Source of the DNA: Harriotta raleighana
Taxonomy: Eukaryota
DNA length: 64,000 bases
Assembly: GCA_050575255.1 (NCBI GenBank)
Contig: JBNZDD010013732.1
Span: 21,276,244 to 21,340,243, forward strand
Direction of reading: 5' to 3'
Shown here: in pieces, positions 6,207 to 60,300 of the stretch
Layout: each line of letters starts with the position of its first letter
How positions within the stretch are numbered: position 1 is the stretch's first letter
Program-made: the position numbers and the translations under genes
The notes under the pieces: generated by a model
The model's input: the letters and a program-made list of their open reading frames with translations, nothing else
Database searches by the model: none
Told to the model about the DNA's origin: nothing

Positions 6207-6340
6207 TAAACAAAATGCAAAAATACTGAAAATCTGAAACAAAAACAAAAGTCGTTGGGAACACTCAGCAGATCAGGCAACATCAATGAAGAGAGGAAAG
6301 TGAGTTAATGTTTCAGATTGATGACCTTTTGTCAAAATGA
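6207..6340. mobile_element. Single arm of the palindromic hammerhead-bearing (Penelope-related) repeat
   Basis: Matches the left arm of the 54873-55111 element (CTGAAACAAAAACA...GGGAACACTCAGCAGATCAGGCAACATC). Confidence 0.75.
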
Positions 6341-9376: not shown

Positions 9377-12300
9377 GGTGGGGTGGTGTAGAGGGAAAAG
9401 GGAGAGAGAAAATCCTCCTTGGTCTCTATTCAGAAATTGCTGTGCTTGAATTGAACATGTGGTATAATAACATATGGCAATGTTGGAAACGTATAGAATA
9501 TGGGCCCCAAATATTTCATTACAATGAATCCTCAGACCAGTGAGCAAAGAGAAGGTATAGCCTTGTAAAAAAAACACATTAACTGCATTCCTTTCAACTG
9601 TACAGAATTATTATTCATGTCGATTAGGGAAATTGCTGGAATCAGCAGCTACATTATATCCACTAATACATTAGGTATGACTTTGTAATAATCAGCACAA
9701 TAACATAACAGCAATAATGTGGTGAAATGTCAATACTTGATGAGGAACAAAAATTAAGAGTGAATTCATAGACTCTAGTTAATCCTAATCACTGCATGCC
9801 ACTGCACATTAAATTATTTTTTCTGTGGTGCATAACGTTACAAATTACCGATAATATACACGCTAGACATTAATAACTAATGCAACACAAACATTTTTAT
9901 GTGGTTCCATGATAAAGACAAGGATGTAAAATTATCTGCTATTCAGTCTCCCTACAATGTCTTTGGTAATGTGCGCAAATTATTCTGGAACACAAAACAA
10001 GGAATTTCAGCAATATCAGATTTCTCCTTCCCCTGGTAGCATGCTAGGAATTTTCCAATTTTAATCATCTCCCTTGCTGATTAATTGCAGAAAATATTTG
10101 AATATTCTTGGAGTACTTACTGTTCTGTTTTCATTAAAATCTGAATATTTTGGCAAATCGCCTAATTTGACACCCTCGTTAAGACAAAAAGCTCTGAGCA
10201 CAACAGTATTTACATCAACTGTTTGACTCAAATGTCTATTTTTATAGATTTTGTATTCCATGCACAGCAGTATAGAGTATACCAAGAACTCATGCTGTTT
10301 TGCAGGGTCTTTCAAACAAGCAGTTTGACAGCCATGAAGTGACAGACATCAATAGCAATATGCCAAGGTTGCCTGTAACTGGACTCTCAGGCAGTATAAC
10401 CCACACCTGCATGACTGGAGGATGCATGTCTGGTTTCTGCCCCACAGAAACCACTAACAACACTTATTAGATGTTTCCTAGCCTGATAAGTGGTCTGTGC
10501 TAGTTTCTAGTTCACATTATTATATTCATTTTGTAATGCCTCCTGAAGCTTGATACCTCAATACCTGAGGGTCCTACTTCTGCCACCAAACAATGATTAA
10601 ACATGACACAGTGACAGAAAACAGGGAGAAGGGATGGAAATAAAAGAACAAGGGATGAAAACAACCATGTTTGGCTCACCACATGGGGTGTGCCTATCAA
10701 CACCAATAACTGTTAGCTCAAAACCTAGTGTCACATTGATAGAAAAGTCAGATCACTCAGATGGGTGCATCATCTGACAGGAAGATATCATTCCTTCCTA
10801 TCCATCCATACATAACCCCTAGCCTTGTCATCTTATGACCATCAGAAGCCTGCATGCAGAACTCTGACACATGGAATAATAATGGTTGTACATCACTGCT
10901 CTGAAAGTCCAATCATGTATATCTTCACTTGGCACTGCCTTTGAGAGTCAATTACTTTATTGACATGCAATCTTCATAAGGAGAGAAATATTGTGCATGT
11001 AAGGTCATTTGGTTATGAAGACATATTATCATATTATCTGCATAAAGGTTGTAGGGCCAGAACCTGACAAAACTAATTATTGCAGTACATGATGCAGAGC
11101 TCACAGTATATTATGTGCTTAACTGCATGACTGTATTCCCCAGCTGAAAAAATGAAGGTGAAATGATAAACTAGTCATATTGCCAGCAAGATGATGCAAC
11201 TGAAGCACAGGCTCAAACATCTCTGTGCCTTTTTATCCAAATATCAGGGTGACAGATTTGGTAAACGACAACTGAGATTACAAATAATTTAGCATTTGTT
11301 CTCTAGCGAATGGGTAAGAAGCAGCCAAAGCAAACTCCAGCTTCTGCACATAACACATTAACATTCAATATAGGCAAATGGAACCAACATAATGTACACA
11401 GCTGAACGTTTATAAATGTCGGATGCGTCCTCGGTTTGTATCCCTGCAATGCATTTGTCTTGTTATTAAGCAGCTCTGAGGATTTAGACTTACCTTCGGA
11501 GAGACAAGTCACAAATTGTTATCTCCCAGTCAGTTTCTTGAATCAACTTTTTTTTTTGTAATTGCAAGAACGGTTGTAAGTGCAAAGGTTAACTGTCAAC
11601 TTTTATGCCATTTTAGACACCGATTTCTTGAAAATCAAAGATGCTGGAGAATGAAATCACAGTATCCTCAAATCAACGGTTAAAATTGGACTCACTGAAC
11701 TGTATCATCTTGTAGTGACATTACATGTCAAAACTGATAACCCAATCAAATCCTGAAATAGAAATGAGTTGTCCTTATTTATTAGAATGATGAGAGATAC
11801 AGTATCTTACATATAAATTGAGAGGGCACAAATTCCATAGCAGACAGTATAAATATTATTTAATATTAATGAATAAAAAATAATTTGATGGTGACAACTT
11901 ATTTGTTCAAGAATTCAAAGGATTATTACCTTCTCTGCAAATCAAACAATAATGCAGTTTGCAATCTAGTGTTCATTCAGCGGTCCACAGACTATCAAAA
12001 TATATTATTTTTGTTGCGTTTTCTGTGGGTAGCTTACATTTAACAAGTGATGAAACATAATCTATCTGAATAAATATTTCTCTGAACCAGCAGTATCTAC
12101 ATCATGAAACGTACTGTAATTATAACATAATTAAGGGTAATTGGGTGTGGCTTAGTTTTCCTTTAAAATGACAAGCTATTCCACATCTGCCACAGCATTA
12201 ATATTTCTACATTACTCAAAGAAAATCAAGCAGTTCCTAAAAATAGCTGATGTATTAAATTCTAGCTAGGCAATGACATGAGTCCAATCAGACCTACGCC

Positions 12301-12720
12301 AGACCAGCAGCAAAAATACCCAGACCATCTGAATGTCTGTCCCCTGATAAATCTCCATGATAAATGCCTTTGTTTTGATGTTCTAAAGGAAATACAGACC
12401 TGCTCAAACTTTACAGCTGAAAACATGTTGGTAACACAAGAATAAAACTCAGATGTCTAAACTGGAAGAAGGTCATTTCTAAGATAATCATTGTGACATG
12501 CAAGCATTGTTTCATTACATCAATGATTGCTTCAGAAAACCTAAAGTAATAAAAAAAAGACACACTATAATTTCTAACACGCCTATGCCAAGAGCAAAAG
12601 TGCTCGTTCTCATGGCATCCTGTTGTATTAAACATTTTGTCCATCTCCATTAATCAAGGACTTATGGTGTTATAGAACCAAGAGAGAAACAGGGAGGATA
12701 TTTTGCTTTGCGTAACCTAT

Positions 12721-13293
12721 TGTAGATTTTTCATGCTTTTCTTTAAAAAAAATACTCCAGAAAATCTTTAAGGTCTAAAGGGAAGTAAAGAAATGACATC
12801 TGAAATTGAGCAGAATTTTCATCTCCATGAGCAAAAATACAACATTCCTTCCAGATGTCCATTAAGGATCTGAAGTCACCCAACACCCAGAAAGTGTGGG
12901 ACATATGGTTGTTTTGTTGGCTAATGCCACAGAGACCAGCCAGACTCATTCTGCGAAGGCCCTTGATGAACTGATGTTGTCAGTATCAACTGGCACAAAC
13001 CCTCTGAAAAAGAAGAGTTGTTTTCTTTAATTCTCAGTGCAACAGCCTACGATCGTGACAGGTTATGCTGAGATTATTAAGGGATATTTTGGGAAAAAAA
13101 GATCCAAACAATGAGTGGCAGCAGGTTGGACAAACGTGAGAAGCAGCGAGGAAGGGTCTTGATTTGTCTTCACCCAAACTAGAAAACATGTTTGTTTTTA
13201 AGATGAAAATTCTGCTCAATTTCAGATGTCATTTTATTCATGTTTCTGAGGACCCAAAGTTTTTCTAGAGCTTTTTAGAAATAGCAAGGAAAA
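12721..13293. repeat. Long inverted repeat (MITE-like relic) with a perfect 34-bp core
   Basis: 12791-12824 AAATGACATCTGAAATTGAGCAGAATTTTCATCT is the exact reverse complement of 13201-13234. Weaker complementarity extends roughly 60-70 bp outward. Confidence 0.85.
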
Positions 13294-13334
13294 TCCCCAC
13301 ACATACCTGTACACATCCAAACACGCACGCACAC

Positions 13335-13500
13335 ACAAGCATCCCTGTAAGGATCGATGGATAATGTCCAGGAGCAGAAATTCTGACCAATATTTTCTAA
13401 CTCAAAATCTCAGGGCCTAGCTCACCTTTCTAGCTCACCTTTACAGTTTTTCTGGCTAAGAGCAGCAAACTGAGCACTAGTCCAGGGATGTAACCTGAAG
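13335..13500 (-). mobile_element. Degenerate AmnSINE2-like SINE fragment
   Basis: Reverse complement resembles the family's central region. Confidence 0.35.
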
Positions 13501-16500
13501 GCTTTCGTGTGAAAATGAGTATTGCTCATTTTGTCAGCCTCAGGTTCTGCCACTGTCAAGTGCTCTGAAATGCTATCCTGTGTGAGGATCATTATGCAAA
13601 TATAAGTTTTTGTTTTAGCGTTCTGGTATGCTCTCCCAACGTGAAAGGCGCTTTACAAACGTAATTTTGTTGTTATTGTTTACTGCTCAAAGTGCTTGTT
13701 GCATGATTTGCCTTACCAACTCTGTAGTTCAGGTTCATTTAGGGACATAAGAGTTAATGCAAAAGCTGATACATTCATTATTTTTAATGATGAGAATATG
13801 AGGTCCCAGGTCCACATATATTGTGAAGACAATCTGTTAGTCAGAATTTCCGGTCTTTCCTTTGAGGTGGGACATTTGAATGCAAACACTTTCCACTTGA
13901 AAATAGGGATCAGAAAAAAGTTGAAAAACGGTCACAATTGCTCAGCACCAAATCAACTCTATTTTTCCACCCAAATACATAGCGTTGAATCAAAATGTCA
14001 CTGAAATAGGTTTTTCAACTACTTCCACCAGAGCCCAATACTTGGCCCTTAACATGATAAGTAAAGTAATAATCCAGCCTATTCAGCCAAAATGCTCATG
14101 TAGAATCAATGTAGAGAATTTTTTTTAAAATAAAAAATTTAAAGTTCATGCAAACTGTTTGATGGACATTCCAGAAGCCGCAGTTCACATCTTGGACCTT
14201 TCTGGTTCTTAGCACTACAGTGACAGATCTTGTTAACTAATTGGTGATATTTATCGAAGGAATTGATGGCTTAAAGAAGCTACATTCATTATAAGCAACC
14301 TCTTATCCTTGATCAAATCCCATCTGGCTGGGTACATTTTAGTTGGCACCATCACATTTTCTTTGCTGCTCTCAACTGTGCCACAAATTATTTTTCATTA
14401 CACAGATGTGTTGGTGCACTATTAACATAATCACAGAAAATTGGCCACCATAATGCTCTTAGTTAACCACAAAGCAAATTGAGTGTGCATCATAATACCT
14501 TCCAGGCCAGGAGAATTTCAAGATGGAACAAGCTGACTGAGCTGTCTATTATTTGCAGCGTCTACTGTACTTGTCTATTTTAATTAACTGACTGTAACTC
14601 CACAGCTTCATGCTGTTGCAGTCATACCAAGGTTGTTTACATTAATGCTCATAGCAACTTCAGTGAGCACATTGCAGGGGTTGTTCACAGAAAATCTGAC
14701 GGCTTCTGGATTTACACTGCAGTGCACTGTGGGTTGCCATGTCCATGCACACCGAAACAGGCTGCAGCAGTGCAATTGCATCAGGTCACTGTGCTCAGAA
14801 TCCCGCGCTCATGCCACCTGTTGTCTGAAGTGAGATGGAGTGGGTGGGGTGGAAGGAAACTGTCACAACAGCCAAGTCTTTTGTCCTTGGTCTGTGAAAA
14901 GAGCAGGTTTGAGTGGCTCAATAGCATTTCTCAGAGGATACTTTCATGTTCTTAACCAGTTTTCGTATCATTAGTAACGAGATTGGGAACACTTCATCCA
15001 CCTGGGAATATCTGATGTTGTTCAAACGACAGAGAAGATTTTTTAAAAAAAACAAATGCGGTTTCTGTGTTCAGGTGAATTTGTTTTTCTTCTTTAACCC
15101 TTGCACAGTGATGTTAATGTGTAAGTTGCGAGTTTTGCTGCCCTAGTGATTGATAGCCATCTGTGAGGTCTAAAGGTCCATAACGTGCCATCCACTGAAT
15201 GACTGGAACTCAGCGAAACAAATCTGACCACCCTCATTCAGCTCACATATAATAATAACTAGGCGAGGATGCTACAAACTGAGCCAGGGTGACACCGAAC
15301 AATAAACAAATATATTTGGAGGCTATTCATTGCAGCCAATTATGGATCATAATTGAACCAAAATAATCCAATAGCCTATTCTAACCCGTTGTGGTGCAAA
15401 TAGGACAGTCCTCAACTGCTCATTTATACCTAGTGGCCTTACTTTTTCCATGCCCTGAAAACTCATACCAGAAATGCAGGTTATTCAGGCTAAACTCTAG
15501 CCTGAAACAAAGCTGTTGCAAAGTGCACAAGACATGTGGTTTCTGAAAGCACAGTCTCTGCAATTGATACTAAATCACCGACTGCTGCATTTCTTCCTTG
15601 CTTACAAACTCGGATTCAATCATCGCAAAGTGTTGAGAAAGATAGGCTGTAATATTATCATGCTGAGAAAAACTGAATTTCCTAACATATAGAAGCTCTG
15701 ATTGGTAAAATATATCTCAATATCATTTCAATCCTAGTATACATCCCTCTGGTCCACTCATGTGGGACATAACTCGATTCTAACCAATCATTACTCCTGT
15801 CAGCAAGAAAAATGTCAAATGGGTAAGAAATGACTATCTTTCTATATATTACAAAGACCATTGTGCACTGGAGTGTATTCCTAGGATTAACCCAATGAAA
15901 GGTTCAGATTTTCCAACTTCATTCCTAAACTATGGTCATCCGAACCGCTCAGTTTGTATGACAGATCATTTAAAAATTCCCCAGATTTATTTACTTCAAT
16001 GTCATTTTATTTATTTTTCTTGCACAGCAAGTGTCATACTCTAAGTGCATGCACCACATGACGATTATAGCAAAGCACTACTTTCATGACCTGATGGCCC
16101 AAAGTCTAAACATGGTGATAAAAAGTCAAAACTATGTGACTAAATGGTGAATTATTATTACAATTCAGTTGAAACTTCTACGATAGTTGTGGAAATGACT
16201 TACATTTGTTTTACTTGACAAATAACATTATTGTGTAGTAACTTCATTGTTCAAGCTGCAGATCCACAGACGTATTTGTGCTACTTTATTCCAAGTTGCC
16301 AATATTATTCTAAATTCTATTTATCGCTTTAGATCAGGCATAAATATGTGAACTGCTGCTACATTTACAGCTTTGGACCTAGCACCAACAGTGTCGTCAT
16401 CTGTAAACCTCAACTTCACAGAAATAAGCAATTTCTCAATGATGTTTTCCAGTTGCTGGCATCAAATAGATTTTGTTTTAGAAAAAAATATTAAATCGCT

Positions 16501-17974
16501 CTAAATTAGCCCCAGATGTTTGTTTATTTGTTCCAGTAAACTTTAAATGTTTTGTGTGTTGTGAAATCTGAATTTCCTGTGAAAAACAGCCACAAATAAA
16601 CTGCAACAACACGCAATACGTCCCCTGGGTGCTTTCAGTGACAGTTTTCTGCCTAACCCTGGATGTTGCTACACAGACGTGCATTGTATTGTGGAACACT
16701 CCCTGGATTTATTTTCAATACACTCATTTGTTATGAGACAGTGAACTATTGGGATCTTATTCAGTTTAAGATGCTAAAAGAATGTCAGTTAAAATGCTTT
16801 AACTTAATTTATTAAAGTTAACATGGGGATGGGTGGAGGGTGGGTCTGAGTGAAGTGCAATAGATGCTCACGTTGTCAAGCCCTGAGATGCAGTTGAGAG
16901 TGGGAAAGATTTACAATTGTGACTCACGGATGCATTTGTTAAAGGAAAATCCTGATGGGTGATCTGGGTTGCAGAGCTGTAATTATTGTACAGTATTATA
17001 GTCCAGCACCTTGATACTCCTTCCCGACATGAAAGGTGTTACACAAATCTAATTTGGTTGTTTTTGTAACTCAACCAAACTAACTACTGTACACAACTCC
17101 TGGATTTGGTATAAATATTAATTGAGCATTTTATTTTACTCCTGGGATATTGCCATACAATGTGNTGCCCTACTGTAATATCCTAGCACTGCAACTTGTG
17201 CAGAGTTGTTTGAGGAATAAATTGACAATGTATTTGAAAACATCACTGTTGATAACAACTTTCAGAGACTTCAATGTCAAACTTCTTTACAACTGCAATG
17301 ACTTGAAAAAGTGCCTTTACTAGAACTGTGTTATTTATAAACGAGGGTAATCATTGTCCACAGTAACTCCATCTTACAGCATATTTTATGAAGTGATTTA
17401 AGATGTTCTCTCCATGTGAAAAGCATGATATATGTAAGGATTATTATGCTGACTATAAATATGATCTTTGCTGGTTGACCAATTGGATTATTATTGTTAT
17501 ATCTTGTTGTTTCCTTATATATGAAGGTGGTGATAGTTCATACATTGGGCAATTTCTGAAATCCATTTTTGGAAATAAAGATCTTCTACCTATGAAACTT
17601 ATGAAAACATTACAAACATATTGACTCGGCCAGGCATAATGTCTCAGTTGAGGCTGACAACAGGTTCCCTTGATCCCAGCTTCTACTTGCTAGGCCAGAC
17701 TGTGGTTTTGATCGCCTTGGGACATCCTGACGTGAAAGGCACTACCCAAGTGTAATTTTGTTGTTGTTGTTATTGATGTCAGAGACTTACTTGCCCACAG
17801 TTATGATGCAACCATATCAATCATCATTCTGCAGGTCTTTCACTGTAAACAGTTATTAACTTTCCCACTCCATCCCAATGAACTAGTAGGTAAATACATG
17901 ATGCAGAGACTTGCAGAGACTTCAATCTCCAAAGCAATGGAAAGGATGGCACAAATAAATACAGTACTTGTGTA

Positions 17975-18200
17975 AAGGATGGAAACCAGAGTTCCCATGA
18001 CTGATGACCTTCACTGAAAAGTGTACAGTTGGAGCTCTGGTGAGGATAAGATTGGGTGTCCTTCTTGGTCAGTGCTCGGTGTTTGGACTCATACCAGAAC
18101 AAATACCATTCCAACCAAGTAATGGCTGGCAGCAGAGATCTTGCTACCAAGTCTAAGCAAGAATTGGCTCCTTTAGGAAAGAATAGAAAATTGGAGGATG
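17975..18200 (+). mobile_element. Degenerate AmnSINE2-like SINE, 3' half
   Basis: CCAGAGTTCCC...GACCTTCACTGAAAAGTGT...GGTGAGGATAAGATTGGG and a purine-rich end similar to the 43240 copy. Confidence 0.4.
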
Positions 18201-19024
18201 TAAAGCAAACAAAACAAAGGAGGAAAACACAGCAATTAAAAGGGTAAAGTAATTATTTGAATGTGCTGGAGTAAATAATGCCTCACTAACAGAAAACAAT
18301 AAATTTGCCTTCAGATTACAAATCTATGAGACACCAATACAAGCGTTCATTTTGCTAAAATCAAACAAACATCATTCCCCCCAATGTGCTGCCATTAAAA
18401 TGGAGAAGAAAACTGTTGCACACCAGGTGTGAACAAACCTGGCACATGGGATAAAAACAACTTTGAAAATGCATTAAACTATAAGCTAGTACAGTATATT
18501 TAAAATTTCAAAAGCTCCGATCACACAGATAGACAGTCAAAAAAGTAGGTATCTTTGTGCCTTGGTTTTTTCCCATATCTGTTTTGTGAATGGGATTCAT
18601 TTTCAGATGTAAGGTCAACTAATAAAAGATTTTCAAAGCAAAGGGCTCTAAAGAATTATTTGTATTCTCAGAGAAAAAAATGAATCCAACTTTGTTCCCT
18701 ATGAATTGATGCAACTTGGAAAGTGAGCATCGATTACAACAGTTCTTGCCAAGTCTTCTGACAGAAAAGGTTTCACGTGACAAAGCAGCTTGAAAATAAT
18801 AATAAGAAAATTACACACACACACTTACGTTATTGTAAAGCTGAAAACATGTTTGTGCAAAGTTCCAAACAAAGCTTCAAGTTTTTGCTTTCGACATTTA
18901 GAACATCCCCTCCAATCAACAAATGCAAAGGGCTACACGGGAAACGTGTACTTAGAACACTGGCAAAGAAATCTCACTTCATCTACCAGCACCTTCTGCC
19001 CATCGCTACTTCTAAAACAACATT

Positions 19025-19165
19025 CTAATAATAATATTTCTCAGATTTGATATAACGCCTTATCACGTCTTCGAGGAGTCTCAAAGAGCTTCACAAAATA
19101 TACTGTAAATTGGACTGACTGTGTATTTTATAGGCGAAAATGGCACCCAATTGCATGCAGCAGTA
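19025..19165 (-). mobile_element. Deu-SINE 3' half
   Basis: ATTTGATATAACGCCTTATCACGTCTTCGAGGAGTCTCAAAGAGCTTCAC...GCAGCAGT, the reverse complement of the family tail. Confidence 0.8.
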
Positions 19166-19732
19166 ACTGGGCTGTGCACTAATATTAATTGGGTTATGCA
19201 CATACTGAATGATAAGGATTAAATCCCAGATCTGAATGCCATGTTACTAGACTGTGTGCATCATGGGGAAAAGTGGCAAGGGACAGAGTTTAATTATGGC
19301 AAAAGGATTATGAGAAGCCAGTTTATGATTAAATGCTAAGATGTTATGACAAGTTTAGAAGGTGGTTTCACCTTCAAGCTTACGATAATTTCTCACACCT
19401 TCGCACTGCAGAACTACTCAGTTAACACCTCAATTCTATGGTGTGGGTGAAATATCCCAAAAGACATATTGATACAGAGCTAAGAATCTTTATCTTGAAT
19501 CTATATCTGTTGATGAACTCAACTGAATACATGCTTGAAAAAGACCAGCGCAGTTTGCTTCAGTAATTGGAAACAATGGACACGATTTTGTACTGCAATT
19601 ACATAATATTTAAACTCACATGGTAATCAAAGACAATTTACTGCAAAACAACCTGAAGGCACCAATAATTAAATACTTCCGATGTTTGATAACGATCATG
19701 TCAGTTCTAAGCCAATTTGCTAACCAATCAAT

Positions 19733-20085
19733 CAAAATTACATTTACAGCTCCTTTCATGTTGGGAGGACGTCCTAAGGTGCTGTACAGTCAAGTAGGGA
19801 TCAGAGCAAGGGACGGAGGGTCAGGGGAAGGAAAGTAGGAAAAATTGACTGTATATTGTGGGCGAAAACACGGCAGCCAAATGGCGCACAGCAGTGTCAC
19901 ACAAACAGTCATGGAAGTGGGGTTAGGGGAGAAAGGGGGGAAAGATGGCAAGGGGTGGCTCGGGGTAGGGGGAAAGAGAATAGGAAAAACCAACTGTATA
20001 TTTGTGGGCAAAACGCGGCAGCCAAAGTCCGCACAGCAGTGTCCCACAAACAGTCTCGGAAGTGGGGCAGAGAGAAAAGAGGGTA
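19733..20085 (-). mobile_element. Composite SINE: LINE2 tail plus two tandem Deu cores (duplicated at 21103-21455)
   Basis: LINE2 tail AAATTACATTTACAGCTCCTTTCATGTTGGGAGGACGTCC, then two copies of CTGTATATT(T)GTGGGC..AAAC.CGGCAGCCAAA...GCACAGCAGTGTC.CACAAACAGTC. Confidence 0.75.
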
Positions 20086-20264
20086 ACCAAAAGACAAATG
20101 TGCAAGTAAATAGTGCATGTTGACTCATCTCAGATCACGAACATAAGGAGTCATAAGATTAGACATTTTCAGTTTATCGATGTTCACGTGTTCAACAATG
20201 AAAGATCCTAAAAATATAATTTTTAAATTGACCCAGACTGTGACTCATCTACATTTAGCAATCA

Positions 20265-20690
20265 GAATCTACCTCAAAATACAAGATGCTGGTCCTCACC
20301 TTTAAACCCCTTGATGGCCTTGCCCCACCCTACCTCTGCGACCTCTAAGCCCCTATCAACCTGTCCACTCCATCCGCTCAGTGGGCTTCAGCCTGCTCCA
20401 TGTCCCCAGACGCACCTGCTTCACATCGGTGACCAAGCCTTCAGCCATTTTGCCCCCAATCTCTGAAATTTCATCATGCAATCCCATCACCTCATCCCCT
20501 CCCTAGCCTCCTTCAAGTCCCACCTCAAGACTCCCCTCTTCAATGGTGCCATCGGTTACCTCTCCTGCTCCCCCTTCCCTTAACCCAGCCCGATCCCGAC
20601 CCCAGCTCGGATCTGAAATCTCTGATTGTCCAGCTCATTGGCAAATACTCCTGACATGAAAGGTGCTATGCAAATGTAATTTTGTTGATG
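20265..20690 (+). mobile_element. LINE2 3' fragment (duplicated at 21635-22060)
   Basis: Encodes KYKMLVLTFKPLDGLAPPYLCDL, the LINE2 ORF2 C-terminus; ends in CCTGACATGAAAGGTGCTATGCAAATGTAATTTTGTTG. Confidence 0.85.
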
Positions 20691-22992
20691 TTTTTCTATG
20701 AGATTACAAAATCTGATTGTTTGTATCACCAAATCCAACACCAGATTTGAAGTATCACAAACTNACACCTTCGCACTGCAGAACTACTCAGTTAACACCT
20801 CAATTCTATGGTGTGGGTGAAATATCCCAAAAGACATATTGATACAGAGCTAAGAATCTTTATCTTGAATCTATATCTGTTGATGAACTCAACTGAATAC
20901 ATGCTTGAAAAAGACCAGCGCAGTTTGCTTCAGTAATTGGAAACAATGGACACGATTTTGTACTGCAATTACATAATATTTAAACTCACATGGTAATCAA
21001 AGACAATTTACTGCAAAACAACCTGAAGGCACCAATAATTAAATACTTCCGATGTTTGATAACGATCATGTCAGTTCTAAGCCAATTTGCTAACCAATCA
21101 ATCAAAATTACATTTACAGCTCCTTTCATGTTGGGAGGACGTCCTAAGGTGCTGTACAGTCAAGTAGGGATCAGAGCAAGGGACGGAGGGTCAGGGGAAG
21201 GAAAGTAGGAAAAATTGACTGTATATTGTGGGCGAAAACACGGCAGCCAAATGGCGCACAGCAGTGTCACACAAACAGTCATGGAAGTGGGGTTAGGGGA
21301 GAAAGGGGGGAAAGATGGCAAGGGGTGGCTCGGGGTAGGGGGAAAGAGAATAGGAAAAACCAACTGTATATTTGTGGGCAAAACGCGGCAGCCAAAGTCC
21401 GCACAGCAGTGTCCCACAAACAGTCTCGGAAGTGGGGCAGAGAGAAAAGAGGGTAACCAAAAGACAAATGTGCAAGTAAATAGTGCATGTTGACTCATCT
21501 CAGATCACGAACATAAGGAGTCATAAGATTAGACATTTTCAGTTTATCGATGTTCACGTGTTCAACAATGAAAGATCCTAAAAATATAATTTTTAAATTG
21601 ACCCAGACTGTGACTCATCTACATTTAGCAATCAGAATCTACCTCAAAATACAAGATGCTGGTCCTCACCTTTAAACCCCTTGATGGCCTTGCCCCACCC
21701 TACCTCTGCGACCTCTAAGCCCCTATCAACCTGTCCACTCCATCCGCTCAGTGGGCTTCAGCCTGCTCCATGTCCCCAGACGCACCTGCTTCACATCGGT
21801 GACCAAGCCTTCAGCCATTTTGCCCCCAATCTCTGAAATTTCATCATGCAATCCCATCACCTCATCCCCTCCCTAGCCTCCTTCAAGTCCCACCTCAAGA
21901 CTCCCCTCTTCAATGGTGCCATCGGTTACCTCTCCTGCTCCCCCTTCCCTTAACCCAGCCCGATCCCGACCCCAGCTCGGATCTGAAATCTCTGATTGTC
22001 CAGCTCATTGGCAAATACTCCTGACATGAAAGGTGCTATGCAAATGTAATTTTGTTGATGTTTTTCTATGAGATTACAAAATCTGATTGTTTGTATCACC
22101 AAATCCAACACCAGATTTGAAGTATCACAAACTTCTCTTCCAAATAAACTTTCAGGAATTAGATAAATGCAGCATTGCTATCCATTTCTCTCCTCCTGCA
22201 CATCACAATATAAATTAAAAGAGTTGATAAATCACCTGGGAACGTACGCTCAAAAAAGCCAAAACCTACTCTTTAAGGAAATGTACTTCCTCATCCCCTT
22301 CCCAAGAAAACAACAGAAGGACAATGAAACATGGTTCCCACCCATGCCAGCCGTAAAGCAGGGTGAATACATTAGTACAAAGAATAGCACAGATGTATTT
22401 CAATTTGAACAATCAGGACAGTTACTTAATATTCCAACAACTGAAGAAGTCCCCAAAAAGTATCCAAAGGTGAATATTTGAAACAAAAAAAATCAGTTTA
22501 TAGATAAAAGTATAGGCATACAGTACATATGGTTTCACTGCATCAGTTTTGAAAAGGAACCAAGTGTTTGAAGGGGGAACATTACTCCCTGAGTTCAAAG
22601 AAAATATGATAAATTGTTTCAAAGTTACTGAATTGACAAGACATTCTTTACAGTGCACACAGACAATGACGAATTTCCAGCAGCTCCAATTTCTGAAGCG
22701 ACCTAATGCTTCTGAATTTCTAAAGTTGTGTAGCAACTGTTGGACCTTGGATCGGTTGTCAGCAATATCCACTTACTTATTGGGGAAGGGAGAGAATGGG
22801 GAGGGGTAAATTCTATGTACAGTAATCCTTGCATTTGATAGAATAATCTTAACACATTCTCAGAAAACTTCATAGGATTTTATTTTGAAGTGTAGTGACT
22901 GGTTGCAGGTGGTGGATGATGATGGGGAGGCTTTGCAGTATTTCCTATTAATAAAGAAACCTGTACGAAAGCCAATATGCAGTTGTTTCTCA

Positions 22993-36949: not shown

Positions 36950-39757
36950 CTCCCTCACCCATACACAAATCTACTCCCTTTCACAAACATTTATTTCAAT
37001 TTTTAATTGGGTTCAGAATACCAAATTTATAGATACATAAAGTACTTTAGAGAATAATTTTGTTCTTTTATATTTGTTTAGAGATTTGAACTTACTATTA
37101 TGATAGAGACAGAGCTTTCTTACCACCATCTGGTTTAGCAATTATATTAAATAATTCTTAAACTGAAATTTTTCCAAGATTGCTTCTTTCTCAGTACAAC
37201 ATAAAAAGTCATGTCTGTTCAGCAGGGCATTCGAACTCTGACATTATTTGACAGAGTTTAATGCTTCAAAGCCTGACTGGCTCCATCAAGTAATCACTAA
37301 TTTGTACAGTGCAGCTGGACTTGAAACTTATTTTTGAAGAACAGGACCTTTCAACAAGAATAATCCCTGGGTCAAGCGAGTTGTTGTAACACAACTCATA
37401 TTTTGTCACTGAAAGCAATAGGCTTATCACAGTGAGTTCACACAATGACCAGCGCACACACTGTGATTTGGTTTGCTGATCTGGTTAGGCTGAAATAAAC
37501 AAAGCTGTAAAGAACATTAGTCCATAAAAAAAATCTATTTAACAACTTAAAAATAAATGTTTAAGTACATTTCCCCCTAATGGCTAAATGCCCTGCTCAT
37601 GGTGGTACTGAGCCAGTCATGTTGGCAAAATTTGAACTTTAACCTGTCCTGAATTATCTGATGAAACCCAAGGTGACAGCTGATTAAAGACCAACACTCG
37701 CCACAGAGAAGTCGTCAACAGTCTGTCCCAGATTCTTGGCTGAATGGCTCAGTTGTGGGAGACCAGAGAATAAATAAAGCCAATGATATAATATATAATC
37801 ATTGAGCGCGTATTTATTTCTAACTATTGTGAGTCGGTGAAATGCAGATCTATCCTGAATATGGATTTGATTTGGGTTAAAAATCCCTTTGCAAAATAAG
37901 TTTGCAGATGAGACACAAAGGACACATCTATATCATCTGGACTAATGCTGGTGCAATCAGAGCAAGCTGTGAAGAGCAGGTCTAGGTGCTCAGAGCACGA
38001 CGATGTGAGTGGGGGGAGGCGGAGGCTAATGAATCCTGATCTAAGCTTGTACATTAGTTTTTAATAATGAAGTTTCATCAGTATTCCAATGAAAAATAAT
38101 TTGAAAAGGACCAACAGATGTGAATACTTGAAATTGTATCTCAACATGATACTTTCTAAATATACATAGGCCAATAGCAGCCTTCTAAAGAAGAAAACTT
38201 ATCTAGAGTTCCTGAAAGTCAAAGATGTACACTTCCCCACCCCTCCTCACACACACACACAATTTCTACTCTGGTGAGCTATCAGGTGTTTCCACCTAAC
38301 AAGCAGCTCCCTTCTTTCACCAAGTTGATGACTCCTTTTTCATCTCGGATCTCTCGGAGACTCATCAAAAACACAATTTAATTACAGCTCCAAAAAGTGT
38401 AAACACAACTTCTTTTTATCTTGTGATACATCTGGACAAGTAGACAATGTGCTAAAACAAAATAAATCTGCCCTGACAGTCACATCAAAGGGTTCAGCCA
38501 AGGGCTTGCAGCTACTTAAGACATTGGAATGTTGTTGCTAGGCATCAGTCTGCAACCTATCAACCCCTTAAAGAAGAGCTTTTTTTTTACAGTTGGGATG
38601 AGAAAAGTGAGAGAGTGGGAACTAGACAGTAAAAAAAAGACTTTGGAATCTCAGGGGGATTTAGAAGCTTAAACTCAGACAAATAAAATTCTTCAGTTTT
38701 CCCACCAAATAAAACTTGGGATTTTTATGGTGAAAGACGAGTTTAGAAACTTGTCGATATTTTCCCAGATAGTGATGCTGTCAGGTTCGAGGGGACACGG
38801 TTCTTGTTAAAACCATGTACTTGCATGTAAGATCAGATGAGAGACAAGGGGAGATGAACAATGTGCTTTCCCCGCACCACTAGAGACTAATGACTGATGG
38901 GAGACATGCATTTGTGACTCTTCAAAACCACTTTATCAGTTGAAAGATGAGTTAATGGGCTTATAGCAGCTCAACTGTGATGGAAAAGTTATTGAAATAA
39001 ATGGTTGCACAACATCCTTTGCATTTCCTTGTATTCAAGATGTGAAAGGAAAGTTCTGCTTAGGAGGGCTGGGAGAAGAAAGAATGTAAACAATAGAAAC
39101 TGGGCTGGGGATATTATTTTGAACTGAAATTTTCAACGTCTTCAATCTCTTGTCAAAAGGTATCACAAGTGTTGCTCTCAACTCACTGCAGGCTACAGGC
39201 AAATTATTTCAGGATTAGCTGGTGCACAAAGAACAAATTAGTTCAAACACCTGAAATAAAATGGAGGTATGTGTCCTGCCTTTGCTCACTGCTTTTATAC
39301 ACCTAAGGGAATCCGTCAAACTGCAGAAAATACGAGAAGTCAACTTTTACACAATAAGTTATAGTTTTCTATTGAAGCAAGCCCTTTTCACGTACATCAA
39401 CTTGACATGTGGAGTTAATCCATCTATTTTACTGCCTTTCCACCTCTTAAATTGGGATGGATGCTAATCCAGTGCTGAAGACACATTACTCAGTAGAATA
39501 ACCCGTCTACAGTTCCAATATTACTGGTGTGTGTGTGTGGGGGGGGGGGGGGGGGGGGGGGGGNCATGCATTAAGAGTAGAAATTACAGGAACTGAGTCT
39601 CAGCTTCCACCAAAAGCCAAGATAAACACACCTGGGTTCTGGTGCAGCACAAGTCCACACAAACTTCAAAGAGGCTGGTTTGAATCCCTCTCTATACCAT
39701 ATTAGCCTATTTCATTCAAGGCACCCACTGCTGAATGTGAATCAGAGACCTTTTCTG

Positions 39758-39860
39758 GAACAAAAACAAAAATCACTGGGAACACTCAGCGGGGCAGGCA
39801 GCATCTATGGAGAAAGTAAAGTGGGTCGACATTTCGGGTCCATGACGCTTTGTCAGAAGC
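39758..39860 (-). mobile_element. Single arm of the palindromic hammerhead-bearing repeat
   Basis: Minus strand CTGACAAAGCGTCATGGACCCGAAATGTCGAC, followed by CTCCATAGATGCTGCC as in 55010-55070. Confidence 0.8.
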
Positions 39861-52717: not shown

Positions 52718-53032
52718 TAATAATAAGAATCATCATCCTTGCATTTGATATAGCGTTTTTCACTTCTTCTAGACCTCTCAAAGCACTTCACAGAATATAC
52801 TATAAAGTGAATTGACTGTACATTTGTTGGTGAAACATGGCAGTCATTTGCACACAGCAGTTTCTCACAAACAGTTGTGGATTGAAATGACCAAATTATT
52901 ATTGTTTTTTTTTGAGTGATTACAGTATTATTAGGTGTGTGGAGTAAAGAAACTTTCCCAATGTTTTGCTCTGTCGGGAATCGAACCCAGGTCTCTTAGT
53001 TGTAAGGCAAGCGCTCTAGCCACTAAACTACA
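52718..53032 (-). mobile_element. Full-length tRNA-headed Deu-SINE
   Basis: Minus strand A box TAGTTTAGTGG, B box GGTTCGATTCC, Deu core and LINE2-derived tail. Confidence 0.92.
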
Positions 53033-53033
53033 C

Positions 53034-53076
53034 ATATTGATATATTCATGTCCGGAGGACATGAATATATCAATAT
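53034..53076. repeat. Perfect 20-bp inverted repeat with a 3-nt loop
   Basis: ATATTGATATATTCATGTCC-GGA-GGACATGAATATATCAATAT. Confidence 0.95.
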
Positions 53077-53386: not shown

Positions 53387-53452
53387 TAACAAAAATGCAA
53401 AATACTGCAGATACTGGAAATCTGAAACAAAAACAGAAATCGCTGGGAACTC
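53387..53452. mobile_element. Terminal fragment of the palindromic hammerhead-bearing repeat
   Basis: AAAATACTGCAGATACTGGAAATCTGAAACAAAAACAGAAATCGCTGGGAAC matches 54885-54930 and 6220-6262. Confidence 0.8.
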
Positions 53453-54769: not shown

Positions 54770-54867
54770 AATATAATAATATAATCCTTGCATTTGATAT
54801 AGCGCTTTTCATAGGTCTCATAGATCTTGAAAGGCAAGTGCTCTAACCACTGAACTTCAGGACTCCA
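54770..54867 (-). mobile_element. Internally deleted Deu-SINE (head joined directly to tail)
   Basis: Tail ATCCTTGCATTTGATATAGCGCTTTTCA abuts head AAGGCAAGTGCTCTAACCACTGAACTTCAGGACTCC. Confidence 0.75.
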
Positions 54868-54872
54868 AATAT

Positions 54873-55111
54873 AAACAAAACATAAAATACCTCAGATACT
54901 GGAAATCTGAAACAAAAACAGAAGAACACTCAGTGGGTTAGGCAGCATCTATGGAGAAAGAAAAGTGAGTCAACGATTCGGATCCACGAGCATTCATCAA
55001 ACTTCAGTTCTGACGAAGGGTCCTAGACCCGAAATATTGACTCACTTTCTTTTCGCCATAGATGCTGCCTGACCTGTTGAATGTTCCCAGCGACTTCTGC
55101 TTTTGTTTCAG
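54873..55111. mobile_element. Palindromic (hairpin) non-autonomous repeat, probably Penelope-like-element related
   Basis: 54907-~55003 is the imperfect reverse complement of ~55006-55111 (GGCAGCATCTATGG / CCATAGATGCTGCC; AAAGTGAGTCAA / TTGACTCACTTT). Confidence 0.85.
55005..55043 (+). ncRNA. Minimal type I hammerhead-ribozyme-like motif (probably decayed)
   Basis: AGUU-CUGACGA-A-GGGUC/CUA/GACCC-GAAA-UA-UU-GACU: CUGANGA box, 5-bp stem II, GAAA box, no helix III, short stem I. Confidence 0.6.
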
Positions 55112-57069
55112 GAATAAAACATGCTTTGTTGTAAAATGAAAAGTAAACTCTGGTCAAGCAATGGGACCATGAGAATGGAAATATCCTCTCGTAATCCCCT
55201 TTTCCCTTCTGTTGTTTTTCAAATGAAGCAACAAAGCAAACATTAAACAAGCTTATTAACAGAACCATCAACTTCGCCCTTCTATTTAGGCTATTCATAT
55301 TCCCTTTCATAAAAATCAAATGCCTTTCACAAAATGGAAAAATCAACGCTCCGCCTACTGTCATGGATGAAGGAAAGGATCTAATTAGAAGTGGAGACTG
55401 ATGGAACAATCAGTACAACTCTTAATCCCAAACATAAGTACTGATAGCCCTGAGCCTCACACCACCCTTGCTTTGATTTTCATGTGAACAAGGCCTTATC
55501 TGAGAAACTTCAATTTGCATGACTTTGCTTGGAGGCAGCTCCCATGATATGTTAATTGCAGGGTGCTTAAGTACTAAAAGGTTAACATAAAATCCTTTGC
55601 AAACAAGCTAATAGTTTATGATAATTTTTTTATTCTTGCCCTTTGTCAGTCTATCAATGGATTGCCTCTAGCTGCAGTTTTATCGAAGGGCTATAAAAAT
55701 ATAGTTTAAACAAGTTCATTCATTCATAATTGATATTTAAATCACTTTCTCTAATTTAGCTATTCTGACCCACTAACAGTCTCCAAATTATAATGTAATT
55801 AAACCACCCTGTATTACAAAGGATTTTATTTCAGAACTAAATGGGCAAGTAAGCGAAAGAGCCTTCCTGTTCAAGAAGATCACTTCAGTGCTAAAATTGG
55901 CAAACTACAGAAACATTACACACATTTTAAAGTTACTAAAACTATTATAGCATATTATTAACAGCTAACCTCAGAATAATGCTGCATAAGATATATTTCC
56001 AACTCTCATACATTCCTACAAACCCATAATTTTCAGTGTTCAGAGATGAAGGTGGTGCTAATCCAGTTAAAAGAGTAACCGGGGAAAGGATTTTGAAATG
56101 ACCCCTTCAGGTCCAAAGGTAATTATACAGTACATTGTTCTATTATGACAACTGCATTCCTTGTTGTAGATACATACAACAGGAAACATGGAGAAGACAG
56201 AGAATCAGTTGGGTTTGTGTGTGGAATGCCTCAGTTTTCAGTCTGGTGGCATAGTGAAGCCTGACAACTGTAGTAACCAGTGCTAGAAATTAAACAAATC
56301 CTATCGGTAATTATTAGGAAGAGAGAGTGTGCAGTTTTACTTGAAAGGCTCCATATGAATACAAGTTGTTGTGTTGTGGCTCTTGTTCACACTGGAATTG
56401 TCTTTGTCCAGTTGTGGAAAACTTCACTGAAGAAGGCAAAACCGAACGAGTTAAAGAATTCTGAAAGTCTAACAATGATTTACTTCCTTCAAGCCTTCGT
56501 ACACATTTAATGCCAAGTTTATCTTCACATATGGGTGATGCAGAACAATTTCAATCCGATATGGCTCTGCATCACCTTGCCCTGCCACTTCTGTCAACAA
56601 TCACTCCTTTTACACTGCTGACAGAGCCAGAGGTAAAGTGGGAACCAAAGAAGCTGATTCAAAGTTAGGTTTGTGGCATACATTCTTTGCCTGTTGAAAC
56701 CTTCCACAATCTCTGGCAAAGGTCAGCACAGATCAGGGGTGTCGAAAATAGCTTCTGGCTTGCAGAGGCAGCTCAGCTCATCCATGTATAAAAACAAAAT
56801 GGCTGACAGTAACATGGATCTTTTAAAGTTTGCTATTTCCAAAAGTAAAAGTGCCTCCTCAGACTTTTCATTTATGTGTCTCTGCGAGGTGAATACAACA
56901 CTGGAGAGGATTTATTTTGAATAGCAATATATAGAGAAACCCATCATCATGCTTAAAATATCCAACCAAACTGACACAGACCATCTATACACTACCCTAT
57001 TATTTAAGACTTATTAGACATTATAATAGAATTACAACTTTTTGGTCACCCAGGAAATATATATATTTA

Positions 57070-57302: not shown

Positions 57303-60300
57303 CAGGAGATACAAATTCACTTCAAAGGCAACAGAAAAATGCTCAACTTAGCTCAAAATGTTTTGCTAGCCTACAATTATAGGTTTAAGTGAACACAGCA
57401 TAAATGAGACTTAAGTAGATAATATCTCTCCAGGTGTGATAAGAATAGAAGTTTAGTCAGAAGGTATTATCTAATCCTTTTGTGAACTGGGTTGCACAAT
57501 GAATAGCCACCAAGAGAAAAACATTCACCCAACCATGTTTTTTTGTAACCTCATTATATCAAAGTCAATAAATCTCTCCTGAAAAGGAGGATTTTTTATG
57601 TGTAGATTTTTTGTCAAATTGTTTTCCATTTCATATACAATCACCAAAAATAAGTAAATTTGGGGGATGAATTCATCACCTATATCAACTATGTAAACAG
57701 ATATTCAAGGAGAAAGGATCCATAAAAAATGTGGAACTCTCATTTGGTGAATCACAAAGCCATACAGACCAGAACATTGCAGGTTGTAAACCTCTTTGAT
57801 GTTCTTCATCATCAATAGACTGGCAACACTCAATGTCAAGGTTGAAACTTGAGTAATAGGTACTTCAGTAAGGTATTGGAGGGGTGATTTGTGCACTTGA
57901 ACTGTACTTCAGTGGAAGGTCAAAGGAGGTCAGCAGTCCTCTCAGGAGTGAAGAGAAAAACTGGCAAAATCGGGGGACTTTTTTTTAGAAAACAAATCTA
58001 CAGAGGAGGAGAGCCCTGTGGCTATGCCCTTATTGATCTGCAATTGTCAACTGCTGGTCAACAACATGAGATTAAAAGAAACCTGAAATAGTCAGCGCTT
58101 GAGGTCACCTGTACATGTTTCCATCACAATGGACATCCCATCATGCTGCTTATACACCACTACACAGACACCAGCTGGAAAATTTGCAAAGCACATTGCA
58201 GCACTGTTAAAACTGCTCCGGGCAACCCCTCCCAATCCTTCAGAGACTGTTTACTTCTTTGTAAACACTGTTGCTTACAGACTCTCAGGCACCAGCTGAT
58301 ATTAGCCCTCACTTCTCCAAAACTGTTCAGAAAGTGAACTCTGTGATCTTTCCTATGATCTTTGGTGCTAAGCTGTGGTCAGCAGGACAGTGAGTGCATT
58401 TAGGAATGACTTTTTTTTAACTTTTCTTGGAATTTGCAAGTACCTTTTTAAACTACCATATTAATTGCAGATCAAAGTCTGAGTATGACTTGTGTGAAGA
58501 AATTAGGATGCATTAGCCCATTTAGAAATAAGTTTAAAGTGCTTCTCCAATGATTTTTGAAATATCTTGCTTGCTAATGAAAATTCCTGCTTGCAAATAA
58601 GGACTGATTTGGAGAGCCTGTATATTTGTGTTGTTTCGTATCTTATAATTGCATGAGAAATTGAGCAGGTTATACGAATAATTAACTTCTAATAAATTGA
58701 ATGCCAATTATTTTTCTCCCTGTCCGACACCTGCGAAAACCTATGATGAAGAGTTTCTAAACCCAGATAGAAGTTNCTGATTTGGAGAGCCTGTATATTT
58801 GTGTTGTTTCGTATCTTACCTCCCCTTCCTGTCCAAGGTTCTGGAAAGAGTTGTCGCCTCCCAGCTGCGCTCTTTCCTCTCCACCCACTCACTCCTCGAA
58901 CCCCTCCAGTCNCAGGAGATACAAATTCACTTCAAAGGCAACAGAAAAATGCTCAACTTAGCTCAAAATGTTTTGCTAGCCTACAATTATAGGTTTAAGT
59001 GAACACAGCATAAATGAGACTTAAGTAGATAATATCTCTCCAGGTGTGATAAGAATAGAAGTTTAGTCAGAAGGTATTATCTAATCCTTTTGTGAACTGG
59101 GTTGCACAATGAATAGCCACCAAGAGAAAAACATTCACCCAACCATGTTTTTTTGTAACCTCATTATATCAAAGTCAATAAATCTCTCCTGAAAAGGAGG
59201 ATTTTTTATGTGTAGATTTTTTGTCAAATTGTTTTCCATTTCATATACAATCACCAAAAATAAGTAAATTTGGGGGATGAATTCATCACCTATATCAACT
59301 ATGTAAACAGATATTCAAGGAGAAAGGATCCATAAAAAATGTGGAACTCTCATTTGGTGAATCACAAAGCCATACAGACCAGAACATTGCAGGTTGTAAA
59401 CCTCTTTGATGTTCTTCATCATCAATAGACTGGCAACACTCAATGTCAAGGTTGAAACTTGAGTAATAGGTACTTCAGTAAGGTATTGGAGGGGTGATTT
59501 GTGCACTTGAACTGTACTTCAGTGGAAGGTCAAAGGAGGTCAGCAGTCCTCTCAGGAGTGAAGAGAAAAACTGGCAAAATCGGGGGACTTTTTTTTAGAA
59601 AACAAATCTACAGAGGAGGAGAGCCCTGTGGCTATGCCCTTATTGATCTGCAATTGTCAACTGCTGGTCAACAACATGAGATTAAAAGAAACCTGAAATA
59701 GTCAGCGCTTGAGGTCACCTGTACATGTTTCCATCACAATGGACATCCCACCATGCTGCTTATACACCACTACACAGACACCAGCTGGAAAATTTGCAAA
59801 GCACATTGCAGCACTGTTAAAACTGCTCCGGGCAACCCCTCCCAATCCTTCAGAGACTGTTTACTTCTTTGTAAACACTGTTGCTTACAGACTCTCAGGC
59901 ACCAGCTGATATTAGCCCTCACTTCTCCAAAACTGTTCAGAAAGTGAACTCTGTGATCTTTCCTATGATCTTTGGTGCTAAGCTGTGGTCAGCAGGACAG
60001 TGAGTGCATTTAGGAACGACTTTTTTTTAACTTTTCTTGGAATTTGCAAGTACCTTTTTAAACTACCATATTAATTGCAGATCAAAGTCTGAGTATGACT
60101 TGTGTGAAGAAATTAGGATGCATTAGCCCATTTAGAAATAAGTTTAAAGTGCTTCTCCAATGATTTTTGAAATATCTTGCTTGCTAATGAAAATTCCTGC
60201 TTGCAAATAAGGACTGATTTGGAGAGCCTGTATATTTGTGTTGTTTCGTATCTTATAATTGCATGAGAAATTGAGCAGGTTATACGAATAATTAACTTCT

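Follow-up and report, generated by a model that had tools for sequence, protein, structure and literature searches.

A hammerhead-bearing palindrome of Harriotta raleighana as a probable head-to-head pair of Penelope-like retrotransposon leaders

The 64,000-nt stretch of the Harriotta raleighana genome analysed here (the window) contains an imperfect palindrome of ~205 bp, at 54907-55111, whose two arms both carry letters reminiscent of a hammerhead ribozyme. The question that this locus raises is what kind of element leaves such a structure behind, and how its two arms came to face each other. The first-pass annotation of this DNA had reported the palindrome and the letters of both arms in terms with which a re-reading of the sequence agrees, and had taken it for an abundant non-autonomous, retrozyme-type element. 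We find instead that the arm belongs to a Penelope-like element (PLE), of which it forms the end repeat and 5' leader; this element has a reverse transcriptase (RT) as well as an endonuclease of the GIY-YIG type. Judged from sequence comparison, the palindrome very probably consists of two leader copies of this EN+ PLE and would be a new member of a published kind. The explanation as a whole, in which a putative mechanism is added to this identity, is also likely, although it is held with less assurance.

Positions in the element are numbered here from the C of CUGA, which is +1 of the PLE leader. The palindrome locus spans 54866-55111 and comprises two head-to-head leader copies of ~105 nt and ~140 nt (Table 1), which are 74.5% identical over 106 nt. 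The extent originally given was correct for the mirrored part, but the left arm goes ~35-40 nt further, from 54906 to ~54866, and the outer boundary of this tail is uncertain by a few bases. At other loci (L238, L241, L243, L245 and others), the tail sequence of the left arm runs on into the 5' region of the element.

The SINE fragment that adjoins the left end (Table 1) has a head resembling tRNA-like Rfam matches. A tRNA-derived SINE family is the commonest repeat of the window (52972-53032 on the minus strand, 53032-53076, and many ATCAAATGCAAGGATTATT ends), with tails that we take to be L2-like, and a perfect 45-nt hairpin adjoins the tRNA-like head of the window SINE. The window also holds perfect direct duplications at 19392-22065 and 57303-59212, with periods of 1370 and 1610 bp, which are possibly assembly artefacts. 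Tandems of 100% identity are found in several other fetched loci as well.

Table 1. Features of the palindrome locus and related sequences (window coordinates; leader positions relative to the C of CUGA).
Feature	Position	Strand	Details
Solo arm	6209..6337	-	Leader -1 to ~+127; 79% match over 6234-6337; core decayed
Solo arm	39752..39858	-	Leader -1 to +103; 81% match; core G8 -> A
Family fragment	53393..53452	-	Leader +74 to +135, without hammerhead; arm match at 53422-53450
Short tRNA-derived SINE fragment (family D16)	54775..54865	-	Adjoins left end; separate insertion
Candidate 7-bp target-site duplication TTCAGGA	54856..54862; second copy 55107-55113	+	Too short to call
One-sided PLE tail, ~35-40 nt	54866..54906	-	Leader ~+103 to +140; left arm only
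Left arm	54907..55003	-	PLE leader -3 to +102, with 8-nt deletion
Broken hammerhead core, left arm	54967..55003	-	C3 lost, GAAA -> GAAU, stem II mismatched
Head-to-head junction	55004..55004	.	Single base separating both 5' ends (gap 1)
Right arm	55005..55111	+	PLE leader -4 to +102, without tail
Minimal type I hammerhead motif, right arm	55006..55042	+	Helix I AGUU/GACU, CUGACGA, bulged A, 5-bp stem II, GAAA, palindromic AUAU

On the plus strand, the right core reads CTGACGA (55010-55016), a single A, a GGGTC/GACCC stem with a CTA loop (55018-55030), GAAA (55031-55034) and TATT. As its earlier description as a minimal type I hammerhead implied, this arm has the CUGANGA and GAAA boxes, an NUH site and a palindromic 15.2-16.2 segment, and its predicted cut falls after 55038, at an AUU triplet. 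GAAA-UA-UU still yields a self-complementary AUAU, and the 4-bp helix I is intact, so that the right core is formally unbroken on paper. In the predicted fold of an isolated 41-mer, helices I and II form at -8.8 kcal/mol. A scan of the window for the core plus its stem gave one match, versus a mean of 0.09 in 100 shuffles.

The left core, read on the minus strand from 55003, is AGTT-TGATGA, ATGCTC-GTG-GATCC, GAAT and CGTT. Taken together, the boxes, site and palindromic segment of this arm fall short of a minimal type I hammerhead, and the predicted fold of the core alone reaches only -2.4 kcal/mol. The letters confirm the earlier observation that there is one ribozyme-like core per strand.

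Rfam searches found no hammerhead at E <= 5 in the window, nor at E <= 10 in six loci, five of them with an intact core. This check, which the first-pass annotation had recommended, thus yields zero hits even on intact cores. Within the arm family, stem covariation is absent. The family does end in GAAACGTT with a decayed CpG, as had been read from the window, and this CpG is changed in 64 of 158 cells. Because the copies are dead, both the lack of covariation and the decay of core CpGs at the pace of other CpGs are expected. Non-CpG core positions are changed in 19 of 670 cells versus 213 of 4234 in the leader; this difference is small and the sets were partly picked by arm likeness, so that it is not taken as selection on individual cores.

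A boxes-only scan of 80 related PLE loci on metagenome contigs gave 15 sense matches versus 0.3 in shuffles. Stem II has at least 4 bp in 13 of these 15 matches and helix I at least 3 bp in all 15, whereas none of nine shuffled matches has the stem. In an alignment of 12 PLE motifs, whose rows were picked with a stem filter, eight of nine pairs vary on both sides and covariation is 0.94 versus 0.30. Together, the cross-family covariation and the stem scan identify the motif as the published PLE minimal hammerhead (PMC4209133). The stem II covariation that had been anticipated is seen across PLE families only and not within the family.

A second repeat with CUGAAGA...GAAACGU boxes (L264, L266, L279 and others) was rejected as a hammerhead, as it is without a good stem II, helix I or a nearby PLE ORF. 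Loci L264, L266, L268, L270, L279, L284, L285 and L290 represent a separate multi-kb repeat family with these boxes, 80-92% alike, and no PLE ORF occurs within its fetched flanks.

Walking upstream from the arm leads through a ~330-nt 3' UTR into GIY-YIG coding sequence with a C-x4-C-x2-C linker, and then into the RT. RT-bearing bodies that end in the arm are present at eight loci (L149-L151, L156-L158, L160, L163), all decayed. The Penelope link that had been suspected, and the search for copies adjoining RT and GIY-YIG reading frames that had been advised, thus proved well founded. Broken copies at L149, L150, L156 and L158 align colinearly with P0012 (806 aa) and P0033, both of which carry Pfam RVT_1 and GIY-YIG, and for L156 the colinearity with P0012 extends across RT, linker and endonuclease. 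The layout at L149 is a short inverted arm, the body and a terminal arm, with the inverted arm 94% identical to the 3' arm.

A search with the ORF 5' region placed the arm at the start of the element as well, where it runs on into that region. Ten arms continue in this way: five begin at -3 to +4, two have an upstream 3' UTR and three begin at +22 to +54. Partial tandems of UTR, arm and 5' region are found at L243, L247 and L250. The apparent ORF start lies ~180 nt downstream of the hammerhead. In the leaders of L241 and L243, an upstream frame of ~37 codons stops 2 nt before this apparent start (TAG-GA-ATG), and polypyrimidine-AG motifs occur near +52, +102 and +177.

The best named protein relatives are from bamboo shark, at 63-66% identity. 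A Cx2-5CxxC linker upstream of GIY-YIG marks the Neptune and Nematis clades (PMC8557442), and it is present in 66 of the 67 homologues, among 120, that show the GIY-YIG motif. By this Cys linker rather than by an RT tree, the element is classed as Neptune/Nematis-type.

All element copies seen are broken and are ~80-90% alike within a subfamily. No intact ORF occurs among 123 matches, for which 150 of 181 RT candidates were scored. Open frames of 997 and 1024 aa were discarded as intact ORFs, since they come from a stretch with long N runs and zero N-free frame of 250 aa, and a ~3.5-kb array on C13565 that might have been an intact PLE tandem consists of near-identical repeats of a composite locus. 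Direct Pfam scans of the decayed pieces were weak, with one RVT_1 match (E 0.009) and zero GIY-YIG; Pfam/NCBIfam on such pieces was nearly blank, and a PDB sequence search gave no match. A Pfam GIY-YIG search of the genome returned five matches, none from the PLE family of the arm, which we take to be a uvrC-like gene from bacteria, an exon similar to SLX1 and an unrelated tandem repeat. One fetched locus, L031 (G000:C12264:9854-13075), is an intronless 650-aa bacterial gene on an assembly contig, presumably uvrC-like and a probable contamination. L033-L035 (G000:C13463) hold a different GIY-YIG-bearing tandem repeat, which scores E 4e-7 in Pfam and has a Cys linker; it may belong to another PLE family.

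The palindrome is not the only trace of this family in the window. The related arms that had been placed near 39758-39860 and 6207-6340 were recovered, but a further fragment had been missed (Table 1). An exact search for the intact hammerhead core with stem II gave 519 matches in the 1.1-Gb genome and 0 in the control, and a looser core pattern gave 2919 and 256. A 464-kb stretch that includes the window holds 12 arms in eight insertions, four of them head-to-head and none with a body; the 400 kb of flanking DNA without the window holds four insertions. If the density of the flanks (four per 400 kb) or of flanks plus window (eight per 464 kb) is typical, the whole genome would hold ~10,000-20,000 decayed insertions.

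The ends of the insertions were compared in 173 unique arms, taken from L002-L030, L036-L063, L144-L163, L204-L263 and the 464-kb stretch; this set leaves out L064-L143, which are largely one composite family, and later loci. Among the 106 arms without an upstream UTR, 70 have their 5' ends between -7 and +2, where helix I has its 5' edge, whereas 19 begin at +3 to +27, two at +28 to +33, ten further in and five before -7. Most arms were fetched by whole-arm likeness or by an intact core, which selects against starts at the cut site, and only the 12 arms of the 464-kb region and the partner arms are free of this bias. Of these 12 region arms, eight have their start between -5 and +2, and the cut site accounts for none.

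The base at -4 was scored in 43 arms that have AG at -3/-2 and no UTR. C stands there in 24 arms, G in 13 and A in 6, while T does not occur, so that G accounts for 13 of 19 non-C arms (p = 4e-5). In full-length L1 insertions, an extra G is the mark left by the cap (PMC11702581). A TATA-like CTTAAAA that lies 29-31 nt upstream of -3 in 53 of 67 arms was not accepted as proof, as it reflects only family conservation. Single-cell reads of another organism cover the arm on both strands, and 77-87% of them run into unlike sequence; no pile-up of starts is seen on the arm in these reads.

The 3' ends cluster twice, near +100 and near +133. In the set of 173, 44 arms form 22 pairs and 129 are solo, and the junctions of the palindromes differ from locus to locus. 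Each of the 16 scorable pairs joins one long and one short 3' end, whereas the solo arms have 57 long and 60 short ends; in three of the 16 pairs, the long end is no tail but a leader that continues into the element. An inverted 5' copy with a tail of 30-40 bp at one end is shown by L149, by all 16 scorable pairs and by the window locus. Identity averages 89% within pairs and 86% between loci, and at four of six sites paired arms agree in their subfamily bases more often than expected; the window arms, at 74.5%, lie below the paired mean.

Flanking repeats of 8-14 bp accompany five of 16 pairs, versus 0.8% of mismatched flanks, and the other 11 pairs have no flanking repeat of at least 8 bp. 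The 8-14-bp repeats are above chance, as for single target-primed insertions. It is likely that one insertion event laid down both arms of the window palindrome.

A composite unit of ~8-10 kb, made up of nested inverted PLE copies, other repeats and unique spacers, is colinear at 80-90% across ~18 loci on different contigs (L099-L118, flanks L371-L382; for example G000:C13719 ~4084100-4092950, and C13702, C13727, C13595, C13655 and C13707). Six extended loci have unrelated flanks. The C13719 copy is bounded by two oppositely oriented copies of one element of ~600-800 bp, with ends TA-CAGTAAAAC...GTTTTACTG-TA; other copies lack one or both ends. The unit is possibly a composite DNA transposon of Tc1/mariner-pogo type, with PLE debris as its cargo.

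The end statistics would be explained most simply by a capped RNA that starts at the ribozyme and is primed internally from both DNA strands. Element RNA would start at about -3, at the 5' edge of helix I, and would be capped. The RT-endonuclease would nick both strands of an AT-rich target, and priming would take place inside the leader, with one strand using ~+133 and the other ~+100. Synthesis of each cDNA would then cross the uncut ribozyme and end at, or close to, the 5' end of the RNA, where the cap would sometimes be copied as an extra G, and the two cDNA ends would be joined to give a head-to-head palindrome. If the cDNAs are copied to the RNA 5' end, stubs would be complete copies of the front end of the RNA and not random truncations. 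We lean, if only modestly, towards this combination of a start site at helix I with two-strand priming.

There is a precedent for several of these steps in Poseidon PAc of Anolis carolinensis, which, when assayed in vitro, nicks both strands and extends them, begins RT at two internal, tail-defining sites and works on uncut RNA (PMC11167929). AT-rich targets are a further shared trait, and the available part of that report, like our arm family, gives no sign of products that end at the ribozyme cut site. PAc belongs to a different clade, and its ORF starts inside the hammerhead, whereas the ORF of the arm family appears to start so far downstream that the priming sites fall in the leader. In D. 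virilis, Penelope has a TATA-less promoter with a start 46 nt upstream from an intron of 75 nt (PMC2377424) that ends at helix I (PMC4209133), so that an RNA start need not abut helix I.

An unlikely, though by no means far-fetched, alternative is self-priming, in which either a single cDNA turns back on itself close to helix I or an antisense strand primes itself as template, and reverse copying follows; resolution by the endonuclease would then leave the tail at one end. Self-priming has been proposed for head-to-head PLE junctions (PMC3846280) and for the origin of the tail (PMC8557442). A single template would explain the subfamily bases shared within pairs and the presence of one tail per insertion, and the sequence upstream of one solo arm (L030) includes a mirror of the 3' strand of helix I. 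The extra G could pair with +34, and a fold-back of 1-2 nt on helix I could therefore add it too. The neighbouring letters are divided on this point: among the 13 arms with G at -4, T is found at -5 in eight, as a fold-back predicts, but G is found at -6 in none, contrary to it. However, self-priming on helix I predicts second arms that start near +30 to +34, whereas they start mostly at -4 to +24, and both arms reach -4 to +2 in ~8 of 22 pairs. Solo arms, moreover, have the same 5' ends as paired ones without any inversion.

It is improbable that stubs and palindromes form a self-standing, retrozyme- or SINE-like unit whose own transcripts are cut, with the PLE protein acting in trans to re-insert them. 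Stubs do outnumber bodies, with 2460 first-look candidates for the arm versus 181 for the RT piece in two different types of search, and the 12 arms of the 464-kb stretch are all bodiless. Each stub would also contain the putative start and priming sites, and short two-arm direct forms of ~390-410 nt exist. However, junctions are specific to the locus in both inverted and direct forms, solo arms outnumber paired ones, and units in tandem array were not seen. The CpG of the ACGU segment decays no differently from other CpGs, and cores on opposite strands are incapable of forming a dimer.

Non-LTR (animal) retrozymes, which are reported in one chondrichthyan, resemble the arms in being non-coding and PLE pLTR-derived and in having a type I hammerhead, but they are same-strand tandem units that each have a hammerhead (bioRxiv 10.64898/2026.07.22.740005). 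The window pair is inverted, and the direct two-arm forms found elsewhere have locus-specific junctions. In these direct forms (L245, L249, L251, L253, L256, L259, L263; also L238, L241, L246, L248), the leader and a partial 5' region are joined to a second arm near -3, often at CCCAG microhomology ~390 nt in and in some cases with an extra G. Their sequence suggests that the template was switched once the 5' end of the RNA had been reached, and such jumps could be a route from PLEs to tandem retrozymes. Splicing was ruled out as their origin because the junctions vary and there is no GT donor.

That the host has kept the right-arm ribozyme as a working RNA-processing element is very unlikely indeed. 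Its core has every box and both helices undamaged, and other PLE families have natural cores with GAAAUAU, but the change of CG to UA amounts to double CpG decay. RNA from either strand of the palindrome folds as one long hairpin (z of -11.4 for the plus strand and -13.4 for the minus strand; none of 200 shuffles is as good), in which the right core is predicted to be locked at -102 kcal/mol. A read-through transcript of the locus is predicted to be a single long hairpin that hides both cores; since these lie on opposite strands, a same-strand dimer is impossible, and monomeric minimal hammerheads showed no cleavage in vitro (PMC4209133). With its left core broken, its right core paired in the predicted hairpin and no same-strand partner nearby, the window copy is likely to be inert today, as had been surmised. 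The possibility of a DNA MITE whose TIRs chance to resemble a hammerhead, suggested only by a palindrome of this length without an ORF, is negligible, since most arms are solo, the two outer ends differ, the flanking repeats are of variable length and the arm forms one stretch with RT and GIY-YIG sequence; the preference for a retroelement already expressed in the first-pass annotation was sound.

The reading of the locus as two PLE leaders can be set beside several known systems. EN+ Neptune/Nematis PLEs with an inverted pLTR (PMC8557442; Pen2a_Av, PMC3846280) have in common with this family a single RT-GIY-YIG ORF, the Cx2-5CxxC linker, partial tandems, an inverted 5' copy and a 30-40-bp tail at one end, and their TSDs of ~8-14 bp compare with the flanking repeats of five of 16 pairs, the window locus having only a 7-bp candidate; the window insertion differs from them in that it is reduced to two leader copies, with the body absent. 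The minimal hammerheads of metazoan PLE pLTRs likewise lack helix III and have a palindromic 15.2-16.2 segment, an extra base before stem II, a G10.1-C11.1 pair, a short helix I and genome-wide solo copies (PMC4209133). In Schistosoma, pairs of them lie 100-700 bp apart on opposite strands (PMC4209133), whereas the window cores are only a few bases apart. The cut triplet is GUU in the arm family and AUU in the window copy. The available part of PMC4209133 names no cartilaginous fish among the hosts. As far as the accessible parts of these reports go, every one of these features has been published before: minimal hammerheads within pLTRs, their solo copies, pairs on opposite strands, pLTRs in inverted orientation and a tail on one side only. 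For the extra G or the long-plus-short rule in PLEs, a partial search of the literature, covering articles without their supplements, found no published statement.

A broader proposal, which we offer tentatively and would not yet call probable, is that the hammerhead marks the capped 5' end of the RNA, that stubs are cDNAs running from cap to priming site, and that every two-armed insertion used the distal site on one strand and the proximal site on the other. An initiator-like YCAKTY/YCAGTT stands just before helix I in several unrelated PLE families, so this rule may be general. Such families show TCAGTT, TCATT or CCATT at this place (L302, L308, L313, L315, L326), and at L326 the 5' copy diverges from the 3' copy ~9 nt before CUGA.

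As one among ~10,000-20,000 decayed insertions, by the extrapolation given above, the window locus carries little weight of its own. The end statistics of the family weigh more, because thousands of fossil insertions would record where the RNA started, where RT was primed and that the ribozyme was uncut at the time. If the proposal is true, one rule would cover the inverted pLTR and the tail confined to one side, as well as the solo minimal hammerheads with which animal genomes are flooded; the ribozyme would sit where cutting removes the cap.
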